Of a DNA stretch of 64,000 bases, positions 35,137 through 49,430 are shown piece after piece. Every line of letters starts with the position of its first letter. Positions within the stretch are counted from its first letter, which is position 1. The translations under genes and the position numbers were made by a program. The DNA comes from Savitreella phatthalungensis (taxonomy: Eukaryota). The DNA is taken from assembly GCA_051599415.1 (NCBI GenBank), contig AP039713.1:1-64000 (forward strand), read 5' to 3'. Under the pieces are notes generated by a model. The model was not told the origin of the DNA and did not search any database. It saw nothing but the letters and a program-made list of their open reading frames with translations.

Positions 35137-36954
35137 ATGAGTTCAGCCAGGATCGAAGCTATATTGCAAAGCGACGTGAGAATCCTAACCCGAGACTCAT
35201 TGGTCAACAAGGCTAACTCTGCTCAAGTCAAGCACACGGATTCTATCAGAGCGTGCAAAACAGGGAATCAGTGCGCTGCGAGAGCTGAGCTCCTTTCTTC
35301 GCAAGCGCGCATCGCTGGAAGATCAGTATGCCAAGGATGCGCAGCGCCTACGCCGGCAAGCGATCGAGAGCTTTGCCAAAGCTGAAGTCAAGCAAGGTTC
35401 ATTCGGAAAATGCATGCGCAGTGTATTGATGATCGAGGATCGCGCGATGGAGAATACGGCTGGCTTCGCCGGCTACCTTCATGAATGCGCAGAAGAATGT
35501 CAAGAAGTTGCACGCGAGCTCGAGAAGTCGCGCAAGACAATCAAAGAAGCATCAACGCGGGACGATCGACAGGTGCTAGACGACGAGTCTGCCAGAGACA
35601 AAGCAATCGCAAAGTATGAATCTGTAGCAGAGGAGTGGGCTCGTCTCAGTCGAGGCGACCCTGCTTCACGGAAAACGTCGTTTGCATTTAAGTCCAATGC
35701 GAAGCCTCCGAGCTCAAAGCAAATAGATGATGTCCGCGCGCGACTCGATGCCGCGCAAGCCGATCGGAGCGCGCGCACAGCACATGCTGAGCGAGCTCGC
35801 GATGGCTTGCAAAGAACCCTTAGACCACGCCACACGGCTGCGTGGCAAGACCTCATCTCTCAGATCGATTCATACATTTCCGCACAGCTCGCTCGCTACG
35901 GCCTTCAGCTCGAGGAGCAGCATTTGAAAGCGGCGCAGGTAATATGTCCGACAGATTCTGAACACGGACCAGGCGTGCGCGACCATATCAAAATGATAGA
36001 CGACTCGATCGATCTGACGCAGTTCATCCTCAGTCAAGGATCATCCCTGGCTATTCCCCTGGAGCCGGTCAGCCAGCGAAACGGACCTGCTCAGCTCGCC
36101 CCTGCCACACGAACCGCTTCCAGTCCCGATCGGCGATCGCCGTTCTGCATGCCGCTCAGTGACCTCATCGAGCTCGAAGGCAATCCTCGTGGTATTCCCT
36201 ATCTCGTCGAATTCCTGATAGGCCATATCGATGCACACTACCTCGGCATACAGGGGCTCTATCGTATCTCTGCCCCACTTCCAGCCATACAGTCGATACA
36301 CGATGACCTGCCGATAGGTGAGAACGCGTTTTCTTACTTTGCAGCTATGTCCAAAATTGCTAACGTCGAACTTACAGGCCCGCTGATTCCGCAAGATCTA
36401 CCGTCAGAGTTGCTGCGTGACCCGCATGTCGGAGCCAGCCTGCTGAAGCAATATTTCCGCGAACTGCCTGATCTCCTAATCCCAGCCGAGCATTGCGGCA
36501 ACTTTGCTCAGACCTCGCGTAAGCCCTATTCAACCTAGGCCGAGAACCAGCCACTGACTTGTCTCCAAGACATCGCCGATGAGAGACAAAGACGCATCGC
36601 GCTCCACCAGGCGATCAATAATCTTCCGGACGCCAACTATTCGACGCTTCGTTCACTCATCCAGCATCTAGCCAAGTAAGCCTGCAGTCATCACACGAGC
36701 ACCGCACAAGCGCAAATCTTAACCGGATACACAGGGTGATCAAGTTGTCGGAGCAAAATTTGATGACAGCCGATAACCTGGCGATCATCTGGGGCCCAAC
36801 TCTGCTAGGCGACCGCAATCTTAATGATGCAGGTGAGGAGGAAGGATGATCAAATTTCACTATGGAGGGCGACTAACTTTCAGCAGAGGCCTTTTCAGTG
36901 GTTATTGAGACGGCCATTCAGAACTGCGGTCTCATATTTGAGGACGAGGAATAA
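35137..36954 (+). CDS. F-BAR + RhoGAP protein (Rgd1/Rga7-like), multi-exon
   Basis: Spliced N-terminus ILQSD/..LRELSSFLRKRASLEDQY (FCH); GLYRIS, SLLKQYFRELPD, NLMTADNLAIIWGPTL. Confidence 0.88.
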
Positions 36955-37941: not shown

Positions 37942-38908
37942 CGTAAGTTGAATAGAAGAGGTGTCTGAGGAGCAGAATTGTGAACGTTTGGTCGTCTTAT
38001 GACCACAGGTGGGTCGATCGCTCAGGTTTACGTCGACGCGCGAAACGCTAGCGATGGTCGATGACGCATAGTTGGTCATTCGGGCGAAACTGAAGCTGGC
38101 AGCTGTGAATTCAAACAATCGTGGCTATGCTTATTCGAAAAGATCTGCTAATGAATTCTATTCGCTCTATTTTATTGCTGACTCGGGTAGCTTATTGAGC
38201 TGGTACTATTGCGGTTGCAACCATTATATATGATGAAGCTCCGTGAAAGTAATCTGTTAATTCTTCGAAAACTCGAGCGTTGGGAGTACTATTTTCAATT
38301 AATTCACCCGACAGATCACCGGCGATTGGGGAAGCACATGGAACTGGGATTGGCTCTCTCTCTTCAAACGCCCAAGGATCCTGACGCAGGCTCCAAATGT
38401 TTTTGAGCCCATGCGTATACCTGATCGTAATAGGATCGACCTCTAATCCGAGCCGAGCTACGATTACATGAGCCTCGGAAGTCACCTGCCCCACAAGCCT
38501 GACACAAGTTTTACCTCGATTAATTGATATCATATTAAACCAGACCAACGAAACACAGGCCGTATGGATCTACACCCAGCTGAAAATGCGGCTGGCATCA
38601 GTCCACCCGGGCTCCGTCGCATATGCCACCTGTGGGCCATCGATGCACATGCATTAGCGCCCATGCACAACATGGCACATCAATACTGGCACGAGCACCG
38701 GGCACTAGTGCCGTAGTTTAGCCACACCAGCCATAATCTGAATTCAGAGGTCGTCTCCACGCGTGCATACCGAAGCGTTTTCAAAGCTAGGTGTTAGCGA
38801 AGAACTATGCGACCATTTCGCAGCCAGGACCAAGATATTCTTCAGCTTTGAACGCTCGACATAACGATCGGAGGCGACGCAAATCGTGACATTGAGAGAC
38901 AAATCGAG

Positions 38909-39424
38909 ATGCTGCCAACGTACGGAGATTCGGGTACAACATTTGTTCTGATCGATCGACTGACAGACTCATCAGATTCCGCGCCGCCCTGCAGCGCAAC
39001 ATTGGCGGACGACGCCTGATGTCGTCTAATGCATTTACACAAGAACGCGACGCGGTAACTCACCACGCGGCTGGTGCGGCGTACGAACAATCTCTTGAAG
39101 CGATTGACGAAGCACGACAGCTGACATGCCAGTGACCTTTGGCGCAAGATCTCGATCTACGTTGCCATTCCCGCACTCATCATTGGGTCCGTCAACGCAT
39201 GGAACCTATATTCCGCTCATCAGGAGCACCTCGCGCACATGGAGCATAATGAGGATGAAGATCATCCGGAATATCCTTACCAGAACATTCGCACAAAGAA
39301 CTTCTTTTGGGGCAATGTGAGTTCGACGTATTTGCGGCTAATGCATCGATCAATACTAACTTTCTGTCAGGGCGACAAGACTCTGTTTTGGAATGACAGC
39401 GTGAACACGCACAAGGATGCTTAG
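38909..39424 (+). CDS. COX13: Cytochrome c oxidase subunit VIa, 4 exons
   Basis: Spliced ..HHAAGAADLWRKISIYVAIPAL..EYPYQNIRTKNFFWGNGDKTLFWN. Confidence 0.95.
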
Positions 39425-39999
39425 GTGCCATCATTCGTCCTTATATGGAGGGGCAGTATCACCGGCCGCCCATGTGCGCATTGCCACGGCAGCCGACACC
39501 CATTTAGCCTAGCAATGAGATGCCGTTGTTCTGCTTCTTGCAGCGTATCATTGAAACGAATCGCTTGATGGCATGCCTGCTGAGCACATCTTTCGCGCAG
39601 AAACGTAGGTAAAAGCGACACCGATGTTATCATGCGTTGTTCAATCACCTTTGCACAGATGTGCCGCATTACGGATAGGTCCCGTGTCCACCCTTGAGCA
39701 GCATGCGTTACGAACATGCGGCCCTCTCTCAACTCGGCGTACAGGCCGATGCGGTGTAATTGTTCGAGTGCGGCGTGCCATATATCAGTCTCCATCGTGA
39801 ACTCACCAAGATCTATGGGATGGCATATTCGCGAGAAATTGACCATTGGTATCTGTTCTTCGAGTTTGATTCGCTCAGACGCAGCATGCTGGTCGACTAG
39901 TAGCACGCGCCGCGTTTTGAGATCGACAATTACGATGACTTTGCAATCAAATTGGCCCACCAGCCGGTGAGCTTGGTCGATGCGCGTTCCAGCGGCCAT
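39421..39999 (-). CDS. MLH3: MutL C-terminal endonuclease domain only (MLH3-like)
   Basis: DQHAASERIKLE, ACHQAIRFND, CRLPWQCAHGRP; 192 aa; in-frame TGA 5 codons upstream of the ATG. Confidence 0.8.
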   Translation of the reverse strand: MAAGTRIDQAHRLVGQFDCKVIVIVDLKTRRVLLVDQHAASERIKLEEQIPMVNFSRICHPIDLGEFTMETDIWHAALEQLHRIGLYAELREGRMFVTHAAQGWTRDLSVMRHICAKVIEQRMITSVSLLPTFLRERCAQQACHQAIRFNDTLQEAEQRHLIARLNGCRLPWQCAHGRPVILPLHIRTNDGT

Positions 40000-40200
40000 C
40001 GAATCATCAACACGTCAAGCGATTCTTCGCATATCCACATATCTTGTTGCCATTTGTTTTTTTATTGATTTCTTATCGATCAGCACTCTGGATTGTGGAT
40101 TAAATAGAGCCTAGCACAGCAACACCAACGTCACCTAGCACATTGATCATAAATAAACATCAGCTACGTCTGCTTTAGCACGTAAAAGGGGCCGAGCGAC

Positions 40201-41051
40201 ATGGCAAGCGCAATCAGTGGTGTACGAACAGCACTCTCGTTATCGCCATGCGTCGACGAAGCAGATCGAGCACTTGCACACACTGGAATCTTCGACGATC
40301 TCGCCTATTTCGAGCATCTCTTCCGGAACTTAAAGATCAGCTATCAAGAAGAGGAAACGCGCGAGCGATATTTGAAGGAATTGTACTCCCTGGCAATTGA
40401 CAGTGACCATGATGCGATTTCACAGCAAGGCAAGATATGACGCGGTACTCATGCAACTCGCAAGGCTAACAGCCAACAGAAACAGCTAATCAGGACTTGA
40501 AGGCAATGCTTCGAGCATCCAAAGATCACTGCAACGCTCTCCGCGTGGACCTTGCCAGGGTACTGAAAGAGATCTCCAAGAGTACGCCTGTCCACGACCA
40601 ACAAACAGAAGACTGACCTCCAGGCTCCGCAAGACTCCAGGTCGCCATTGACAAGCAGGATCACTTCTGTTGCGACATTGCAGACTTGCATGCTTCTGGT
40701 GCCAGCTTGAGGCATCTTAAGGATGGCAGAGAGCAGGTAAGGATGTCCGTCCTACGAGTGAAAAATGTCTGATTGTTTTCCCAGCAATGCAGCTTGCAAT
40801 CTTTGTCGCACAGGACGACAGAACTTCAAGCTAGAACTTTTGCAAAACGTGGCGACATCACTGCTGTGCGCAAATGCGTGACCGAGCAAAGGGCTTGTCT
40901 TGAAGTGCTAATGACCGCTACTGCAGATGCTGATCAACGGGGGCGTTTGGAATCCCTACCATTTGGGCCCCGCATTCTGCACTCGAACAACTCGACTTTA
41001 CCTGGCAGATATTACCAAGGACTATCGGGATGTTTATCGTTGCTCATGTAG
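40201..41051 (+). CDS. Kinetochore Sos7/Kre28-like coiled-coil protein, 4 exons
   Basis: DLAYFEHLFRNLKISYQEEETRERYL resembles the Sos7 motif; three ~45-50-nt introns give one continuous frame. Confidence 0.7.
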
Positions 41052-41632
41052 TTCGAGCAGGGGTGCGGGACAGTCGTGGCATTACATACCACTTCGATTA
41101 AATGCGAATGAAGGTCGGCATGCGCTGCTTCGAGTTCCTAGCTAGCCTCAGTGATCGGAAATGTTGCGACAAATCGTCACCTGCACGACCTCTCCGAGTC
41201 TGCAAAGCGCAAATTATTTCTCTCGCAAAAGGTTGGCGTACTTTAATTAAATCCCGGTATAGCGGTGACGCTTCTCTGCCTCAGGATTGTAGCACAAAGA
41301 ACATCGGGAAATGACTGGAAACGGACCCACAAATTGTAGCATTCAGCATACTAGTCAATGTGACGTCCTTCTATGGGCGGTCAACGAGTCGGGAAATACT
41401 ATTTAATTTATCAGCTTGTCTTACTTGATCTGGCGATCATTTGTCTTTGTCTGCACTCAACGACATGTGAGGGGCCATGATATGTTGAGTCCTCCATTTC
41501 GCAATCACTATCGCATGGCTTGACAACAATAGCAAGCATGAGACTTGTCAAGGACCATTTCTGTGACCTTATAGAGGGGCATCGCGCAATGCTTCTACCT
41601 ACCCACTGGAGGATACGTAGGAGGACGTCAAC

Positions 41633-42316
41633 ATGAAGCTCACACCCACCAAAGCAACAAGAGGAGTGAGCAAAACGAATAATGCTCCGTTGAAAATCAT
41701 ATTGTCAGATGGCAGAAGCGACACCTATATCGGATTCGATGCTCATACAGGTAATCGTCGTGCGACTCGTCTTAACGCGTTTTTCCTCTACATGGAAGAA
41801 CTACGATGCGATCCAGCGCGAGCCGCCACCTATGCTGCGATTCTAGCCGAATTTCCCGATTGTAAGGTAACGGAAGCGCTTGCTCGATCGTGGCGCAGAA
41901 TGTCCGGCGAAGAGCAGAAAGCATATCACATAAAATCGGATATCGCGAAGTTCAGCAGCTCGATTCCAACACAGGGAAACCGGACACTACAACGTCACAG
42001 CCGGGCTCCTATGTTCAAGCCGCCCACTGAGCTCAGGACGGCTAGGAAGAGAATGCCGGACCTAGTTCACGAAGGGCCTTGTCCAGTGTATGCTCCACAG
42101 ATCGACTATTACAGCCCCGCGATCTATGCGCGAGCCGTTCAGCCCGAGATCGCAACTGCGATCGGCTGCACGACGGGCATCGCAAGCAATTCAGCCATTC
42201 CAGCATGGCTTGCTTACAGCATGTCACCCTCGCTGGACTACACAACCATTGAGCTGTCGCCGCCTATTCTTGCTTCGTCGATGCAGACTTGGCAAGAAAC
42301 CGAGGACTTTGCTTGA
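41633..42316 (+). CDS. HMG-box transcription factor, candidate mating-type gene (matMc/matPc-like)
   Basis: RRATRLNAFFLYMEELR...KVTEALARSWRRMSGEEQKAYH single divergent HMG box; context next to COX13 and a homeodomain gene. Confidence 0.8.
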   Translation: MKLTPTKATRGVSKTNNAPLKIILSDGRSDTYIGFDAHTGNRRATRLNAFFLYMEELRCDPARAATYAAILAEFPDCKVTEALARSWRRMSGEEQKAYHIKSDIAKFSSSIPTQGNRTLQRHSRAPMFKPPTELRTARKRMPDLVHEGPCPVYAPQIDYYSPAIYARAVQPEIATAIGCTTGIASNSAIPAWLAYSMSPSLDYTTIELSPPILASSMQTWQETEDFA

Positions 42317-42577
42317 GCCACAACCATCTTCTAAATCGGTTATGACACGGGCCGAAGTTACCGCTTTGACGACGGCACGCGTAATTGCTGCAAATCCAAT
42401 CACCGAATCACATCACATCATTGTACATCTTGACCAGAGAATTTGTATAGCTCATAGTAATCTTCTGTATAGTTGTTGTCTTGCATCAGTCGAAATGTCT
42501 TGATAGTCATGATGTTTCACAAATGAGGCTTGAAAAGCTCGTCCGCATTGACGTTTTAAGAAGGAAATCTTCAAGAA

Positions 42578-43204
42578 TCAACCTGTCAGCGCCGGACCAT
42601 TACTCCCATTTGTGCATTTGTGCGAGCCCCGGTTGACCTCATGATCGAGCCTCGTACCTTCGCCACGTACAGTATGTGTATCCTCGTCCCGACCATAAGC
42701 ATGTTGGACTGCGGATTGGAGGCCTTCATTGGACACGATTTGCATACATTGGCGAGCTATGTCTGCGTCGATCCCATGCGTACGGTAAAGGTTTGTGGAA
42801 TTTGAAGAAGCTGTTACGTGTTGCGACTGGTCGTGCGTCGTGACAACGCCGGCTAATGCATTGGGTTTGCCCGCGGCAGTAAAATCATCGGAAATCAAGA
42901 GCGCGCCAGCAGAACTGATGAAGAGTCGGTGTGTGATGCTGGCCTGGCGAAAAGCAGAGCGACGCAAAGATGGAAAAATCCGATAAGATTGGATTATGCA
43001 ATGAAATCTTCGCCCAAGTGCTGCCAAGTGGCTGGACTCGCCTCGGCAACCAAAGATTGTGGGCTTTGGCAAGAGATCTTCATCATGACGCCAGCTGCAG
43101 CGGACGCCCGCTGAGAACGAGGCCAAATGCTCCACATCTAAAGTACCGCCGACGCGAGGTGGCGCGCAACTTTTCAGGTGCCAGTTCCGAGATCCTGGAC
43201 GCAT
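42578..43204 (-). CDS. Orphan ORF inside the candidate MAT region
   Basis: 208-aa ATG ORF; no recognised domain. Confidence 0.3.
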   Translation of the reverse strand: MRPGSRNWHLKSCAPPRVGGTLDVEHLASFSAGVRCSWRHDEDLLPKPTIFGCRGESSHLAALGRRFHCIIQSYRIFPSLRRSAFRQASITHRLFISSAGALLISDDFTAAGKPNALAGVVTTHDQSQHVTASSNSTNLYRTHGIDADIARQCMQIVSNEGLQSAVQHAYGRDEDTHTVRGEGTRLDHEVNRGSHKCTNGSNGPALTG

Positions 43205-43425
43205 GTCAGAGTTGATGGTCGTTCAGGTCCTCGTTGAGTCAAATACACAAAAGCCCATCGAGTCTCACCTCATTGGTCATCAATCGCTCTGATCGTGCGT
43301 TAGACTCAGTTTCGAGGTCACTGGGGCAATAATGCACAGCTGGTCATATCAGAGCTACTGTACGTCTGTGTACATGTTCGCACAAGCATTTCCAAGGGAG
43401 AGTTCATTTAAGCCCAATTCGCGAG

Positions 43426-44100
43426 GTACACGACGCCGCCACTCCCGCAATCACCCGGCCTACGTATGACGAGATGATAGCCCTGTATGGAGCTGTCAAC
43501 TAGTATCGTTCTGTGCTAGGGCCTGGTGATGGTGATATCTGGCATGCTGTCTGTGCGCAGCATGCTGCGTCCTCTTGTACCCCAACCAGCCTGCCATGTC
43601 AGCAGAGTTGTGGTCTGTATCACTTATAGCACAGTCGGCGTCACTGCCTAGATTGCTTCTAGTAGGCCTTCTGTGTCTGTTTTTACTCGTCTGTATGTCG
43701 CGGCCGGTCGATGGCCCGGGTCAATTGTATACGGTTTGTACACGACGCTGTCACTTCCGCAATCACTCGGTCTACGTATGACAAGATAGTAGCCCCATGA
43801 GGAGCTGTCAAATAGTATTGTTCTGTGCTAGGTCCTGGTATTGGTGATATCTGGCACGCTGTCTCCATGCGGCGTGCTACGTTCTCTTGTACCCTACCAA
43901 CCTGCCACGTCAGCAGAGTTGTGGTATGTATCAGTTATAGCATGCTCAGCGTCACTGCCTCGACCATCTCTTGTAGTTCCTCCGTGATTGTTTGTACTCG
44001 TTCGCATTTTTCCGTGTCATTCGGTGGACTCCGTCTTTGTCCTCCTGTGTTGTCTGGTTTGTGTCCGTGTTGTTTCGTCCGTCGCTTTCGGGTCCTGCGG
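43426..44100 (+). repeat. Two tandem degenerate copies of a repeat unit (period 312 bp); left arm
   Basis: GTACACGACGC..GCAATCAC..TACGTATGAC..GGAGCTGTCAA..TTCTGTGCTAGG at 43426 and 43738. Confidence 0.93.
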
Positions 44101-44684
44101 TCGTCCTCCGCGACAGCATTCTGTAATTGTGAAAAATGAGACAAATTGCTCGATAGTTGCCGGGGATGTTATTTTCAGCATCAACTTTGTTTGTTAGTAG
44201 TTCTCTGCCTTCAGTCGGGCTTGATACAGTGTAGAGCCTCAGCAAGTGTACTGAGCAAGATGTGGTCGTTTGTGTTCGCCCCTGTCTTCTTATTGTTTTC
44301 AAACATGACCATCTGAGCGCGACATCCCTGTATGATTTCAAAGCAAGCTGGTGATAATGTGCAGTCTATACAAGTATACTGAGTAAAACATGATTGTGTC
44401 TGATTTCCGATGGTTTCCTGTTGTTTCCAAAGATATCCATCTGACTGAGACAACACTACAATAGTCAAATCATCGTGCGGATATTTGCGAAAATGGCAGC
44501 AATAGGTGATTATACGAGTAATTATACGAGTAGTAGTTCATGCGGCGATGCCCGTCACTGACACATTCGTGCGGGAAATCGTCCATGCTAATCACGGAGA
44601 GCGGCAAATTTAGAAATTGCTAGTCAAGGAATTGCTAATTTTGACAACTTGGCTGATACAAGCTGCACAATCACTTTTTGATGG

Positions 44685-45850
44685 AACAGGGCTCAAGGGC
44701 GACGGACGAAGCGACACAGACATTACCCAGACCACACAGGAGGACTCAGCGGGGCCCATCAAAGGACACAAACGGACACAAACGCTTCTGAACGAGTACA
44801 AACAGACACAGAAGGACTACAACAGGTCGGTCTGGGCAGTGGTTCCAATCTTTGATAGACCTGACACATAACACGAGTCTACTGACGTGGCTGGCTGCTG
44901 ATATGGCTGGTCGCTGCTGACGTGGCAGGTTGGATCTAGCTACAAGAAGACATGGCATGCCATATGAGAACGGTGTGCATGATATAACCAACGCCAGGAA
45001 CTAGCACAGAACGATACTATTCGACAGCTCCACACAGGGCTACCATCTCGTCTTACGTAGACCGAGTGATTGCAGAAGTAACAGCGTTGTGTGCGAGTAT
45101 ATACGATCGACCCGGATATCTTAGCGGACATGACACACATAGGAGCTGAAGTTTTGAGTGCACCCATGTCGCCACTGATCTAGCCATGCAGACCACTCAT
45201 ATACAATGCTACAGGCCTTGACTTTGCTGATATGACAAATTGCACGACTAAGCCTCAGCGCCCATGATTGCAATATGCTACACACAGATGATGTGCATGA
45301 TATTACTCAACATCCAGCTTAGAAGAATCATGCGACAGCTCCAGCATGGGTCCACAACCTTGTCACACACAGCATCAGGTGTTTGCGGAAGTGACAGCGT
45401 TGTGTACAATTAATCCTGTAACAGCAGCATGGACAACCAAATCGTGTTGCAGAAGACAATCGTCAAACCAGAGGGCAACAGACAAAGGGAAAAGAATACA
45501 CACAGGACGACTCATATGGAGCTCACTAAACAACCAAAATAAATCCAAATTTTTATGAACAAAGACAAACAGACACAGGAGGACTGCAATAGATCAAGCA
45601 AAGTCAGACACCAGGATCCGTAAAAATGCTGTAGCTGATACATGCCTCAACTCTGCTGACATGACAGGTTGCACATTGGAACCTAAGCATCAGAGGACGC
45701 AGCAGGTCGTCTACAGGAGGCATGCAAGACATCACCAACACCAGGATTTCCAGTAGCACAGAACAATACTACCTGACAGCTCTTTAAGGCGCTACAATCA
45801 TTATATACGTATCCCCGAGTGATTGTCGGAATGATGGCATTGTAAACAAT
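44685..45850 (-). repeat. Two inverted degenerate copies (~44685-45130, ~45560-45850) plus a fragment (~45380-45410); right arm
   Basis: CTAGCACAGAACGATACTATTCGACAGCTCC at 45001 and TAGCACAGAACAATACT at ~45754 are reverse complements of the left-arm unit. Confidence 0.9.
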
Positions 45851-45976
45851 TGTATAGCACCAGGCTAGACAACCTGACCGGTCTGTCACGACCGGTATGA
45901 CAACAATATGAGAAGAACTGCACAAAAGTTATCACAAATAGTCAGAAGGAGTTTGAGAAGTGATATCTCGCTACTT

Positions 45977-46591
45977 TCAAACACCTGACGCGGCATGTGC
46001 AGGCCGGATCGCCTTGCACAACAGAGCGTGCCGGCTTGTATCCGGATGCCGGACTAGACTAGCCACGGGAGCGCGAGCCAGTTCACCGACGAATCTTCTG
46101 CCGTCCGCAGAACGTCGACGGGCGTTGATGAACCAGGTATTCAGTTGGGCGTAGGACATACCGGATTGCTCCACTAGCCTCGCTTTGACACTGCTCGAAG
46201 GATACGGATGGTCCAAGTGCTCGAGATACCACTCCTTCAGCAAGAGAACCCTCATCTTAACATCATGGTCCACTGCCAGAACATTTTTGCGTGTCTTTCG
46301 CGCTCGAATTTTCTCAGTCCGATTTTTCGAGCACAGAGCCACCACGCGCATGCAGGTCTCGCGCATCGCGAGGACTTCTGTGATAGACGCTTTCCGTATC
46401 CATGCCGTCAGCTGTGGACGATTCATCGTGATTCTCAGCTGTGTCTCCAAGGTTTCAATTCTTTGAATGTCCATTTCATCGCTCGAAACATTGAGTGCAT
46501 CGTGTAGATCGCCCACGACATCCGAGGTGTCCCCTAGCATCTTAGATGCTACAATCAGCGTCCCAAGTCCCCTTTTGTGCTGCTGTTCCAT
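45977..46591 (-). CDS. TALE-class homeodomain protein, candidate mating-type gene (matPi/HD1-like)
   Basis: LKEWYLEHLDHPYPS...QLNTWFINARRR; start taken at ATG 46591 (alternative 46693); TATATATA at ~46665. Confidence 0.85.
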   Translation of the reverse strand: MEQQHKRGLGTLIVASKMLGDTSDVVGDLHDALNVSSDEMDIQRIETLETQLRITMNRPQLTAWIRKASITEVLAMRETCMRVVALCSKNRTEKIRARKTRKNVLAVDHDVKMRVLLLKEWYLEHLDHPYPSSSVKARLVEQSGMSYAQLNTWFINARRRSADGRRFVGELARAPVASLVRHPDTSRHALLCKAIRPAHAASGV

Positions 46592-46710
46592 CCTGCGCAC
46601 GGACCCATATGCATCATCCGGCTTTGTAGTACTGTAAGTCGGCCCTGAGCTGTATTCGTAATTGTATATATATGTGCAAACATGATTGTTCATAAAATAA
46701 GCTCTTTGTC

Positions 46711-47787
46711 TCACTCGGATTCATCCCAGAAAGACCGCTTATGTATCATCGCGAGGATAAGGAGCAACGGCAAATGGAGCAGGCTCGCAAAGAATAGTTT
46801 CCGTGCGGCTCTATCGCGAAAGCTCTCATCCCCATGGAAGGGTCTTGAGGCCTGCCAGAAGCGCAAGGCCTGGAGTATCAGATAGCCGTTGACGATAGAC
46901 GAATCGATCAAGAACCACGGATGACAGATATCGGCATGAACCAGAGCCCAACTTATTGGTGCGCAGGCGATGGCGTAGCGTAATGAGACGCGGCTATTGA
47001 TGCCCGGATTTGTGACCGATGCCATCACATAGCCCGCACGCGCATATTCACCACGTATGTACCACGCAAGACTGTTGAAGTGAGGAAACTGCCAAGCATA
47101 TAGCAGACCAGCGAGATAGAGTGCTCCGATGTTGTCAAGCGAGAAAGGGTCATGGGACGAAGCTGCGAACCATCCGATGAGCGGAGGAATTGCGCCAACG
47201 ATCGCACCGGCCCACGTGTTGAGGATTGAGACGCGCTTGAGCGGTGTGTAGATTCCTGCGTAGAGGACAATGTTGGCAAGTCCGAGGCCTGCACAAACAG
47301 GATTGATCATGAAAAGCGTCACTGTGCCGGCGACGCCTGCCGCCGCGCCTATCGCAAAAGCCTGGTCCGGATGCACCGCTCCTCGTACGAGCGGTCGATT
47401 GCGAGTCCGAGACATTTGTGAGTCGAAGGGAGGCTCAAGCCACATGTTGAAGGCATTTGCACTGCTGGAGCAAAGTACTGTGCCGGCCGTCAAGAAGCTC
47501 AAGGTCGTCAAAGGAGCGTCGGCTGCAAATGGACAAATCGCATAGGACGCCATGGTGGAAAGGACCACGAGAGCTGTCAGTCGAGGCTTCGAAAGCTCTG
47601 TAAGTGTTGAGATGGATGGGCGGCCGCGACGACGGCTGTCCGGGGACACCGTCTTTGAAGCTCGATCATTGGTGGTAAGAGCGGCCGTCTGCGGATGATA
47701 CACACTGCGAACTGTTATGCGTAGGCAACCACGCAAGGCAGAAGTCTGGATACCAACACAACGCGTTATCAGACGACGAGCAAGCAT
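46711..47787 (-). CDS. COX10: Protoheme IX farnesyltransferase (heme O synthase)
   Basis: LSKPRLT, DSQMSRTRNRPLVRG, YTPLKR..NTWAGAIVGAIPPLIGW, WQFPHFN. Confidence 0.97.
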   Translation of the reverse strand: MLARRLITRCVGIQTSALRGCLRITVRSVYHPQTAALTTNDRASKTVSPDSRRRGRPSISTLTELSKPRLTALVVLSTMASYAICPFAADAPLTTLSFLTAGTVLCSSSANAFNMWLEPPFDSQMSRTRNRPLVRGAVHPDQAFAIGAAAGVAGTVTLFMINPVCAGLGLANIVLYAGIYTPLKRVSILNTWAGAIVGAIPPLIGWFAASSHDPFSLDNIGALYLAGLLYAWQFPHFNSLAWYIRGEYARAGYVMASVTNPGINSRVSLRYAIACAPISWALVHADICHPWFLIDSSIVNGYLILQALRFWQASRPFHGDESFRDRAARKLFFASLLHLPLLLILAMIHKRSFWDESE

Positions 47788-47831
47788 GTGCAAAATCCTT
47801 TTGACGTGCGTCGTTGTGCTACAATTGAAAT

Positions 47832-49430
47832 TTATTGCTTGCCGGAAGTGTGGATATGAGCTGACTCTGATCTTGCACGCCGGCCAATTGGGGTCACGCT
47901 ACTCCTATTTGATACAGATTTGAAGCGCGAAGACGATGGAGGACGGGTCGGGCCAACTGATGGAGATGAAAGGCCGAAGTCGCTGGTCAGTGGACGGGAG
48001 ACATTCGTGAGATGCTTGTTGATGAGCTTTGCGTCCTCTGGCGAGGCGAACGGATCGACGAGCGTGTCCAATTCGATTGGCTTTGACACCGCACGATCAC
48101 GACCGCGACCTCTGCCGTGTGAAGTTGCGAGGATCAGGGATTCGCCCGTGCCACTGAGTGGAATTGCAAGACCGGCCCTTGGACGAGGTGTTTGATCCGT
48201 CTCATCCCAGATTGGCTCCTGAATGAGCTCCTCGAGCACGTCCTCGAGTGTGATGACACCAATGGGATCGAGCTCAGCCATCTCCGCCTCTGTCCAGAGT
48301 CTCGTAGGCACAGAACGCTCTTCGAGTACGGTCTCGTTGGAGGAGCGCGAATCCGTGGTACGCGTGCGGGCAACTTCGACCGGCGGCTCCGGGGAGGGCG
48401 ATGGCACCACAACGGCTAGGTGCGACCGACCTTCTTGGAAGATATTGAGAATATCAAACAAAGGTAGATCGTCCTGCACTGATGGGATGTGGTTGATGTT
48501 GATGTGCCGTAGGGGAAGCTCATCATCGGGGTCGACTAGGAGGAGGTTCTTGGCGAGCAGACAGCCTGTTATGCGCATATCACCTCTGACAGTCTGGTAG
48601 ATCGGGATACGGCTATGCCCACGCTCTGCAATACTGCTCATGGTTTCACGATCGAGCTTCGCGTCATGGGGGAGCATGAAAACGTTCTCGATAGAAGTCA
48701 TCGAATCACGCACACGCTTCTCCTGCAAGTCCAGTGCACCACGCATGATCGTGACTGCATCTATGTTCAGATCTCCACCGTGAGCAGCTTGTTGAGAGTG
48801 GAAATCTATGAGCTCCTTGAGCTCGGCTCGACGATAAATCATGCCATGCGTCTCTCCGAGCATGAGATCAAGCAGCTTGGCTATCGGCCAACTGATGACG
48901 TAGAGCAGAAGTATCAGACCACGGACGGGTATAGCCATAGCTGCACCTATTCTCAAGCCATGTGTCGAGCACACCGCTTGCGGAATGATTTCGCTGAAGA
49001 TGACAATCATTACAGTCGACAAGACGATCGAGACTGGGCCAGAAGAGAACAGCCGCTCTGACAAGATCGGTAGCGTCTCATTGACGACCACGTTCATCAA
49101 CAGCAGGGACACAAGCAGGAGATGTCCCTTGCGGCGAATCGGCAGGATTTTTGTCGCGTGACGCTTCTGTTCCGCAGTGCCAGATTGCGCCAGAACGTGT
49201 AATTGAGTCTCGTCAAGAGACATCAAGCCGAGCGTCAAACCCGCCGTGACGCCACTGACAGCGACGAGCATGAGGATAGCGATCACATATCCGACAATCT
49301 GCGCGGGTGAAAGACCCTCAGCCAGACGGCGTGGAAGAAGTAGTTTTGTGTCTACAGGCTGCGCATTCACACAATTGATGAGGCCTAGTAGCGCGACCAG
49401 GCGCGATGTTATTGAGCGATCATGGCGCAT
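47832..49430 (-). CDS. MAM3: CNNM/DUF21-CBS protein
   Basis: AGLTLGLMSLD, HLLLVSLLLMN..NETLP, GHSRIPIY, FQEGRSHLAVV, GVITLEDVLEELIQE. Confidence 0.93.
   Translation of the reverse strand: MRHDRSITSRLVALLGLINCVNAQPVDTKLLLPRRLAEGLSPAQIVGYVIAILMLVAVSGVTAGLTLGLMSLDETQLHVLAQSGTAEQKRHATKILPIRRKGHLLLVSLLLMNVVVNETLPILSERLFSSGPVSIVLSTVMIVIFSEIIPQAVCSTHGLRIGAAMAIPVRGLILLLYVISWPIAKLLDLMLGETHGMIYRRAELKELIDFHSQQAAHGGDLNIDAVTIMRGALDLQEKRVRDSMTSIENVFMLPHDAKLDRETMSSIAERGHSRIPIYQTVRGDMRITGCLLAKNLLLVDPDDELPLRHININHIPSVQDDLPLFDILNIFQEGRSHLAVVVPSPSPEPPVEVARTRTTDSRSSNETVLEERSVPTRLWTEAEMAELDPIGVITLEDVLEELIQEPIWDETDQTPRPRAGLAIPLSGTGESLILATSHGRGRGRDRAVSKPIELDTLVDPFASPEDAKLINKHLTNVSRPLTSDFGLSSPSVGPTRPPSSSRFKSVSNRSSVTPIGRRARSESAHIHTSGKQ

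Follow-up and report, generated by a model that had tools for sequence, protein, structure and literature searches.

The 64 kb of DNA that we analysed (hereafter, the window) is the left end of chromosome C25 (207,365 bp) of Savitreella phatthalungensis, a yeast placed in Taphrinales incertae sedis. It carries two convergent genes, 3.66 kb apart, which an initial annotation had proposed as candidate mating-type (MAT) genes and which do resemble matMc and matPi. The first (positions 41633–42316 of the window, forward strand) encodes a 227-aa HMG-box protein (Pfam HMG_box_2, E = 0.002, under the cut-off) and is probably matMc. The second (45977–46591, reverse strand) encodes a 204-aa TALE homeobox protein (Homeobox_KN, E = 4e-17), probably matPi, and is located directly downstream of the cox10 reading frame (46711–47898, reverse strand; UbiA, E = 1e-49), whose best named matches were those of Taphrina (61%, T. 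deformans) and Protomyces (58%). On the M side, we found the main reading frame of an rga7-like F-BAR/RhoGAP gene (35189–36538, forward strand; FCH and RhoGAP domains) and a weak candidate for matMi (41411–41539, reverse strand), a 42-aa frame lacking any Pfam match that is divergent from matMc, with start codons 94 bp apart, and that was retained by the position and size criteria of PMC4313921. Both cox10 and rga7 have been named as MAT-associated genes in Taphrinales (bioRxiv 594028, PMC4313921), rga7 adjoining matMc/matMi in T. deformans and Schizosaccharomyces (PMC4313921), and sla2, the ancestral MAT neighbour in yeasts (PMC6692504), lies at C25:65983.

Genome searches retrieved matMc and matPi as single-copy genes, the latter with one weak paralogue only, and no second MAT cassette, donor or additional MAT copy was found in the genome. 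Likewise, no repeat pair enclosing matMc and matPi was detected on C25 (scanned as 16 pieces). The two genes are thus less than 20 kb apart, single-copy and devoid of switching repeats, as expected for a contiguous MAT locus of the primary homothallic type. Based on protein domains and gene neighbours, we infer that this is a fused M+P locus, probably with a centromere inside it. A search for MAT orthologues returned no named one, and a matPc profile (PF04769) had no match, an uninformative result given that the control likewise matched nowhere. A 208-aa frame at 42578–43204 had no Pfam match either. Among 80 metagenomic cox10 loci, which were at most 55% identical and included no Taphrinales locus, none matched matPi or matMc. 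Upstream of matMc, the product of a spliced gene (40201–41100) has an N-terminal match to the kinetochore protein Sos7 (E = 3e-5, under the cut-off), and an ORF of 192 aa (39421–39999) contains a MutL C-terminal domain with no N-terminal ATPase part seen adjoining; this ORF may be an MLH3-like gene in truncated form, on the border of the MAT region. When the segment 23500–43400 was compared with the genome, an opsin paralogue was the only return (one of two candidates scored).

The gap between matMc and matPi is occupied by a repeat array, in the very place where the initial annotation had seen one. Self-comparison revealed a direct pair (43426–43690 and 43738–44001; 265 bp, 81% identity, E = 1e-67) and a main inverted match (43716–44085 and 44699–45115; 420 bp, 69%, E = 1.5e-46), with more inverted matches extending to 45627–45833 and 45334–45409. 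It is the sole long repeat of the window, telomere and short tandem repeats aside, and also of C25, where all the other repeats found in the 16 pieces were short. The 'subtelomere' in which it had been placed is a loose term for a site located 43 kb from the telomere, at 21.5% of the 207-kb chromosome. The array is also the longest stretch of C25 without a 180-aa frame and the second-lowest in GC among 343 windows, the GC effect being modest. An Rfam search of 40000–48000 yielded no match.

The copy positions first proposed were largely correct, but the repeat unit, estimated then at 300–400 bp, measures 424 bp, has sharp TG...CA ends and, as detailed below, is the long terminal repeat (LTR) of a retrotransposon. 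Five decayed LTR copies, whose extents were mapped with natural copies and whose strand is given as the sense of the retroelement, surround a 571-bp core. On the reverse strand, copy 1 (43426–43695) is partial (LTR positions ~106–380), 78.8% identical to the LTR of the full-length element, and abuts the start of copy 2 (43696–44115), a complete solo LTR (positions 1–424) that is the youngest of the array (87.6%). On the forward strand, copy 3 (44687–45134) is near-complete but decayed (79.4%), copy 4 (45205–45410) is partial (73.3% over 45286–45407), and copy 5 (45445–45881), which starts ~115 bp earlier than initially annotated, is near-complete and the oldest (70.3%). The latter ends ~95 bp from the matPi stop codon, whereas matMc is 1.1 kb away from the LTR island. 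Copy 2 is not flanked by a target-site duplication (TSD), four of the five flanking letters being different, which indicates that recombination has occurred inside this cluster. The array had been described as nested; however, its three near-full copies share only 69–78% identity, and each finds a closer copy on another chromosome (75–88%) than among its neighbours. Copies were therefore inserted serially, over a long time and in both orientations.

The single full-length copy of this element (C23:220681–227389) is a Ty3/gypsy chromodomain retrotransposon, with gag followed by a pol encoding protease, reverse transcriptase, RNase H, integrase and a putative chromodomain. Its two LTRs are 99.8% alike and share a common 5-bp TSD. 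The chromodomain, at the integrase C-terminus, scored 19.2 bits (cut-off 25.1), had CBX3 chromodomains as best PDB matches (E = 0.005) and is atypical, without an aromatic residue after the conserved Trp. The putative primer-binding site (PBS) has an 11-nt complement inside the LTR, at position 263; a self-priming PBS is what would be expected of Tf1/sushi chromoviruses (PMC10085805). Between pol and the 3′ LTR, the element carries an extra antisense ORF of 430 aa with a Cys-rich middle part, a candidate targeting factor. This ORF had no Pfam match, its Atlas leads reached just 0.78–0.79 and a search for relatives returned only itself; a remnant with 37% identity adjoins the C4 cluster. Among the 40 LTR copies with both ends, 12 had a perfect 5-bp TSD and six more had one with a single mismatch; the 40 include both LTRs of the intact element, with their common TSD.

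The genome assembly (12.74 Mb) consists of 27 contigs with telomeric sequence at all 54 ends, the longest tandem run of telomere units counting 11 or more, or nearly so (minimum 9), at each end, so that the contigs are whole chromosomes. Canonical hexamers are distal in these telomeres and variant ones proximal. A shared non-telomeric leader persists at contig ends (positions 1–321 of the window and others) and resembles a sequencing adaptor. When the LTR was searched by BLAST, 63 matches were obtained, distributed over all 27 contigs (40 of 67 candidates scored), and a 30-letter LTR pattern allowing up to three mismatches had 66 matches, all of them in 27 clusters, exactly one per telomere-capped chromosome, whereas its reversed control had none. 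For 27 clusters placed randomly according to chromosome length, the chance of such a distribution is about 1e-12. The initial annotation, which listed a small centromere-like element among its options, had named one copy per chromosome as suggestive of a centromere, and this is the outcome (27/27). It had also considered that the unit might turn out to be a common dispersed LTR or transposon fragment: an LTR it is, but not a dispersed one.

Clusters span 0.7–4.2 kb, except for that of C23 (at least 8 kb), which holds the intact element. Eight are found at 43–67% of the chromosome length, six at 11–22%, and 13 within 18 kb of an end; 12 of the 27 are less than 9 kb away from a telomere. Such near-telomere positions fit a history of centric fission followed by telomere healing, as well as the large number of chromosomes. 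LTR pairs from the same cluster (57) had a mean identity of 78.7%, and those from different clusters (1773) one of 79.4%. Since copies in the same cluster are no more alike than those on different chromosomes, the inverted layout of C25 appears to be a by-product of separate insertions. All mapped copies are on one strand in the clusters of C10, C13, C15, C20 and C22. Identity to the intact LTR varies between 99.8% and 69.6% among the 61 near-full copies, all within clusters, so that recent as well as ancient insertions selected these sites. Other gypsy families are represented by six full-length elements whose LTRs are identical; all six are in chromosome arms and, apart from telomeric hexamers, had no match to the cluster loci. 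An element from a different gypsy family, at C3:467.6 kb, has some four telomere hexamers just within its 5′ LTR. Other chromodomain-type gypsies in this genome are not centromeric either, suggesting that a chromodomain alone is insufficient for targeting. As the one exception, a related pol fragment (72.7% nucleotide identity) is located outside any cluster, at C16:1138–1446, far from the C16 cluster.

Three clusters possess homogenised inverted arms, at C4:468164–470330 (625 bp, 100% identical, including non-LTR flank), C12:98835–100835 (98%) and C5:294910–296596 (95%), separated by cores of 0.9–1.15 kb, which suggests inverted-repeat centromeres arising from LTRs. As a general class, inverted-repeat centromeres of the type found in Komagataella or the imr-cnt-imr type of S. 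pombe do not account for the clusters, with arms 69–78% alike in C25 and 95–100% alike in only three of the 27. We also rejected tRNA-targeted insertion, as no tRNA gene was called in the 26 other loci or in the window (intron-containing tRNAs may be missed).

The LTR-free core of the C25 array (44116–44686, 571 bp, 41.7% GC) matches the ~600-bp unique core described earlier (44100–44685) insofar as BLAST against the genome retrieved only itself, but a profile search uncovered in it two tandem copies (44182–44337 and 44328–44478, forward strand) of a degenerate repeat of ~150 bp, repeat B, which is found in other clusters too. The profile, built from its own matches, had 17 matches (E < 1e-3) on 10 of the 27 chromosomes, 15 inside cluster spans and the remaining two within 57 and 668 bp of one; the two window copies alone retrieved 13 matches on eight chromosomes. 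With a genome-wide pattern for repeat B, all four matches, on two chromosomes, were in or beside clusters. The core of the C1 cluster contains what we take, from a recognised motif, to be the remnant of a Tc1-like transposase, and repeat B is possibly the end of a decayed Tc1/mariner-type DNA transposon; other decayed transposon pieces are also present in cluster cores. Repeat B was discarded as a universal centromere motif, reaching only 10 of the 27 chromosomes, and so was any universal core motif of the point-centromere type, k-mer enrichment consisting mostly of AT-rich words.

Leaving out C23, GC was below that of the flanks in every one of the 26 clusters (0.489 versus 0.527), and so was the CpG observed/expected ratio in 24 of them (0.83 versus 1.07). 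The LTRs have decayed mainly by CpG transitions: compared with the intact LTR, 24.4% of CG sites (996 of 4075) bore transitions in 45 copies, against 4.9–9.1% for C in other contexts; this comparison excluded the C23 pair and 14 copies with less than 78% identity. TT sites, too, had an elevated rate of T-to-C changes (15.6%), a sign that the intact LTR is an imperfect ancestor. On C25, 13 of the 343 windows have a CpG ratio below that of the array, the lowest at pogo-type and MULE DNA transposons (135318–137241 and 183944–186341) that have open frames, terminal inverted repeats and strong CpG depletion. CpG loss, being stronger at these elements, thus marks transposons in general and is not specific to centromeres. 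The genome encodes a protein of 2085 aa with DNMT5 architecture (DNMT, SNF2 and helicase; C27:136892–143146), a second gene with a DNMT domain (C4:619305–620831) and one Argonaute. By contrast, Taphrinomycotina have been described as devoid of DNA methylases (PMC10327204), and DNMT4 has been listed for T. deformans (bioRxiv 2023.01.30.526367).

A pile of retrotransposon ends present once on every chromosome most likely marks the centromere. We consider it very probable, judging from sequence, that the array is a regional centromere of ~2.5 kb, marked by LTRs, with the matMc and matPi genes of a fused MAT locus on either side. In the mechanism that we envisage, the gypsy chromovirus would integrate into centromeric chromatin, probably through its integrase C-terminus with the atypical chromodomain or through the extra antisense ORF, and recombination between LTRs would reduce insertions to solo LTRs. 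These would be methylated by DNMT5 and kept quiet by DNMT5 and RNAi, while CENP-A would occupy the AT-richer core, or its vicinity, of a small (~1–4 kb) epigenetic regional centromere. It is more likely that LTRs follow the centromere than that they make it. Targeting, rather than mere retention, is indicated by the occurrence of copies of all ages in clusters and of all six other-family gypsy elements in arms. The oldest copies, down to 70% identity, speak against the centromere having arrived very recently. It may always have been linked to MAT, the M and P genes having fused on either side of it, or may have come to this place afterwards.

Alternatively, the clusters might be heterochromatin islands or integration hot spots occurring once per chromosome, with the true centromere elsewhere or only nearby. 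The decayed pieces of other transposons in cluster cores, reminiscent of a general transposon graveyard, and the many clusters that abut subtelomeres are compatible with this, the centromere assignment being deduced from sequence. In particular, insertion on the telomere side could explain part of the pattern, since 13 of the 27 clusters are less than 18 kb from a telomere, some of them against subtelomeric repeats; yet no chromosome has two clusters. We regard such islands as improbable: there is exactly one cluster per chromosome, be it central or terminal, no tRNA gene was called at these loci (with the above caveat on introns), and young transposable elements of other families survive in the arms. 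Moreover, no second LTR site exists on C25, whose other low-GC gap (64.0–66.0 kb) is just upstream of sla2.

A hairpin or siRNA silencer, or a boundary, specific to MAT and fed by read-through from the convergent genes was another option of the initial annotation, and one that we find very improbable. Of 419 bases, 332 could be paired between copies 2 and 3, in stacked runs of up to 22 and 34 bp (no shuffle control), an Argonaute is present, and a hairpin could still form on read-through. In addition, contigs from a run (X2) that was listed as 'DNA?' but is RNA-type, since they skip GT..AG introns, cover matMc and matPi and reach the outer LTRs on either flank (as far as 43622 on the left, and starting at 45105 on the right). 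Nevertheless, a contig spanning two features does not demonstrate a single transcript, and contig depth, which summed to 18.8 in the core versus 325 and 462 in the flanks, cannot rank the parts of the locus. More importantly, a silencer dedicated to MAT would leave the 26 other clusters unexplained: the same LTRs occur on all 27 chromosomes, several clusters have all mapped copies on one strand, and the C25 arms, 69–78% alike, are not homogenised. A cenH-type silencer, expected to show centromere homology at a silent donor region away from the centromere, was also rejected as a class, the array being the sole cluster of C25 and there being no donor cassettes.

We give hardly any credit to the idea that the repeats are a flip/flop mating-type switching system or a relic of one; the scar of an M–P fusion, also suggested by the initial annotation, is likewise unsupported. 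As in Ogataea, the M and P genes adjoin each other, with a putative silencing centre beside them, and the inverted arms of C4, C12 and C5, 95–100% identical, imply that recombination between inverted repeats occurs in this genome. However, the inverted repeats of C25 lie between the genes, with arms merely 69–78% alike, and, in the absence of outer inverted repeats and of extra copies of the single-copy matMc and matPi, switching by inversion is unsupported. By the definition of FF1/FF2 flip/flop switching (PMC6692504), an inverted-repeat pair would enclose both MAT gene sets, and none was detected in the 16 pieces of C25. A junction of M and P created by mis-assembly through the repeat is equally hard to credit: copy 2 lacks a TSD and no contig listed for another run, a public one (X1), bridges 43622–44041, but copy 2 is at most 87.6% identical to any other near-full copy, too little for an assembler of long reads to be misled, a single cluster and two telomeres are present on C25, and MAT-linked genes are found on both sides (rga7 on the left, cox10 and sla2 on the right). 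The X1 contigs match 38500–43622, 44041–45030 and 45003–48407 without differences; runs X1 and X2 derive from a single sample, and the assembly may itself have been built from them.

A single cluster of retroelements per chromosome is a known sign of centromeres in several yeasts (PMC2997560, PMC12711049). Centromeres marked by Ty5 LTRs in Scheffersomyces stipitis, Debaryomyces hansenii, Ogataea polymorpha, Cyberlindnera sargentensis and Wickerhamomyces canadensis resemble those proposed here in having one single-family cluster per chromosome, mostly of solo or broken LTRs, in a long intergenic gap (PMC2997560, PMC12711049); in W. canadensis, these gaps measure 2.2–9.3 kb and LTR-derived sequence is reported at centromeres only (PMC12711049). 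In contrast with these budding yeasts, S. phatthalungensis belongs to another subphylum, has a Ty3/gypsy chromovirus with a PBS of the self-priming type, Argonaute and DNMT5, and possesses 27 chromosomes of which about half are telocentric. The centromeres of Cryptococcus are much larger than the clusters described here. They also have LTR elements that are centromere-specific and common to chromosomes, which can mediate rearrangements affecting MAT, but in a basidiomycete and through a tetrapolar-to-bipolar fusion (PMC5568439).

Within the same subphylum, Schizosaccharomyces species have Tf1/sushi chromoviruses and MAT genes tied to centromeric DNA, with S. japonicus having its donor region inside a centromere (PMC10085805). 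However, fission-yeast centromeres extend over tens of kb, with near-perfect inverted repeats, many tRNA genes and silent donor cassettes (PMC10085805), whereas the C25 array spans ~2.5 kb with no tRNA called and no donors. Pneumocystis, also in the Taphrinomycotina, has small (<10 kb) centromeres on many small chromosomes (PMC10327204) and a fused Mc/Mi/Pi MAT locus (PMC4313921), but its centromeres are genic and repeat-free (PMC10327204). T. deformans has the Mc/Mi/Pi set that is proposed here, with genes split over two contigs (PMC4313921). Taphrina has more than 20 chromosomes and frequent fusions, and the accessible text of PMC7036362 makes no mention of centromeres; that of PMC4007546 mentions them for fission yeast only. 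In the literature covered, mostly outside subscription journals, we found no description of centromeres in Taphrina or other Taphrinales.

The closest parallel at the locus itself is CEN2 of Barnettozyma californica, a centromere also located in a small gap (2.8 kb, versus 3.66 kb here) between opposite MAT genes, MATa and MATalpha, of a homothallic-looking locus (PMC12711049). That centromere was mapped by Hi-C, was recently relocated and has a 460-bp shared non-coding sequence (PMC12711049), whereas the putative one proposed here is marked by LTRs with copies down to 70% identity and is, therefore, probably old. Barnettozyma also has a mixture of centromeres with and without inverted repeats (PMC12711049), resembling the clusters of C4, C12 and C5 versus the others here. 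What appears to be new in S. phatthalungensis is a gypsy chromovirus as centromere marker, the very small size of the clusters, a host in the Taphrinales and a second, putative and independent, case of a MAT locus that contains a centromere. A more speculative idea, improbable though worth stating, is that the centromere itself acts as the mating-type switch, with its chromatin spreading heritably to one side and silencing matPi or matMc, such that genetically identical cells would be M or P without any DNA rearrangement. If so, a centromere-based switch would have arisen independently of Barnettozyma and would explain the self-fertile formation of dikaryons in Taphrinales, and the MAT locus of T. 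deformans, split over two contigs, would be broken at the same centromere.

These results provide candidate positions for all 27 centromeres of a Taphrinales genome; according to PMC10327204, inferring the ancestral state requires additional centromeres from Taphrinomycotina. They would add to this subphylum a third centromere design, tiny, LTR-marked and probably methylated at CG sites, and would offer a compact example of a gypsy element that targets centromeres strictly. Finally, a second independent centromere wedged between opposite MAT genes would make the choice between M and P in a primary homothallic cell testable at one 4-kb locus.
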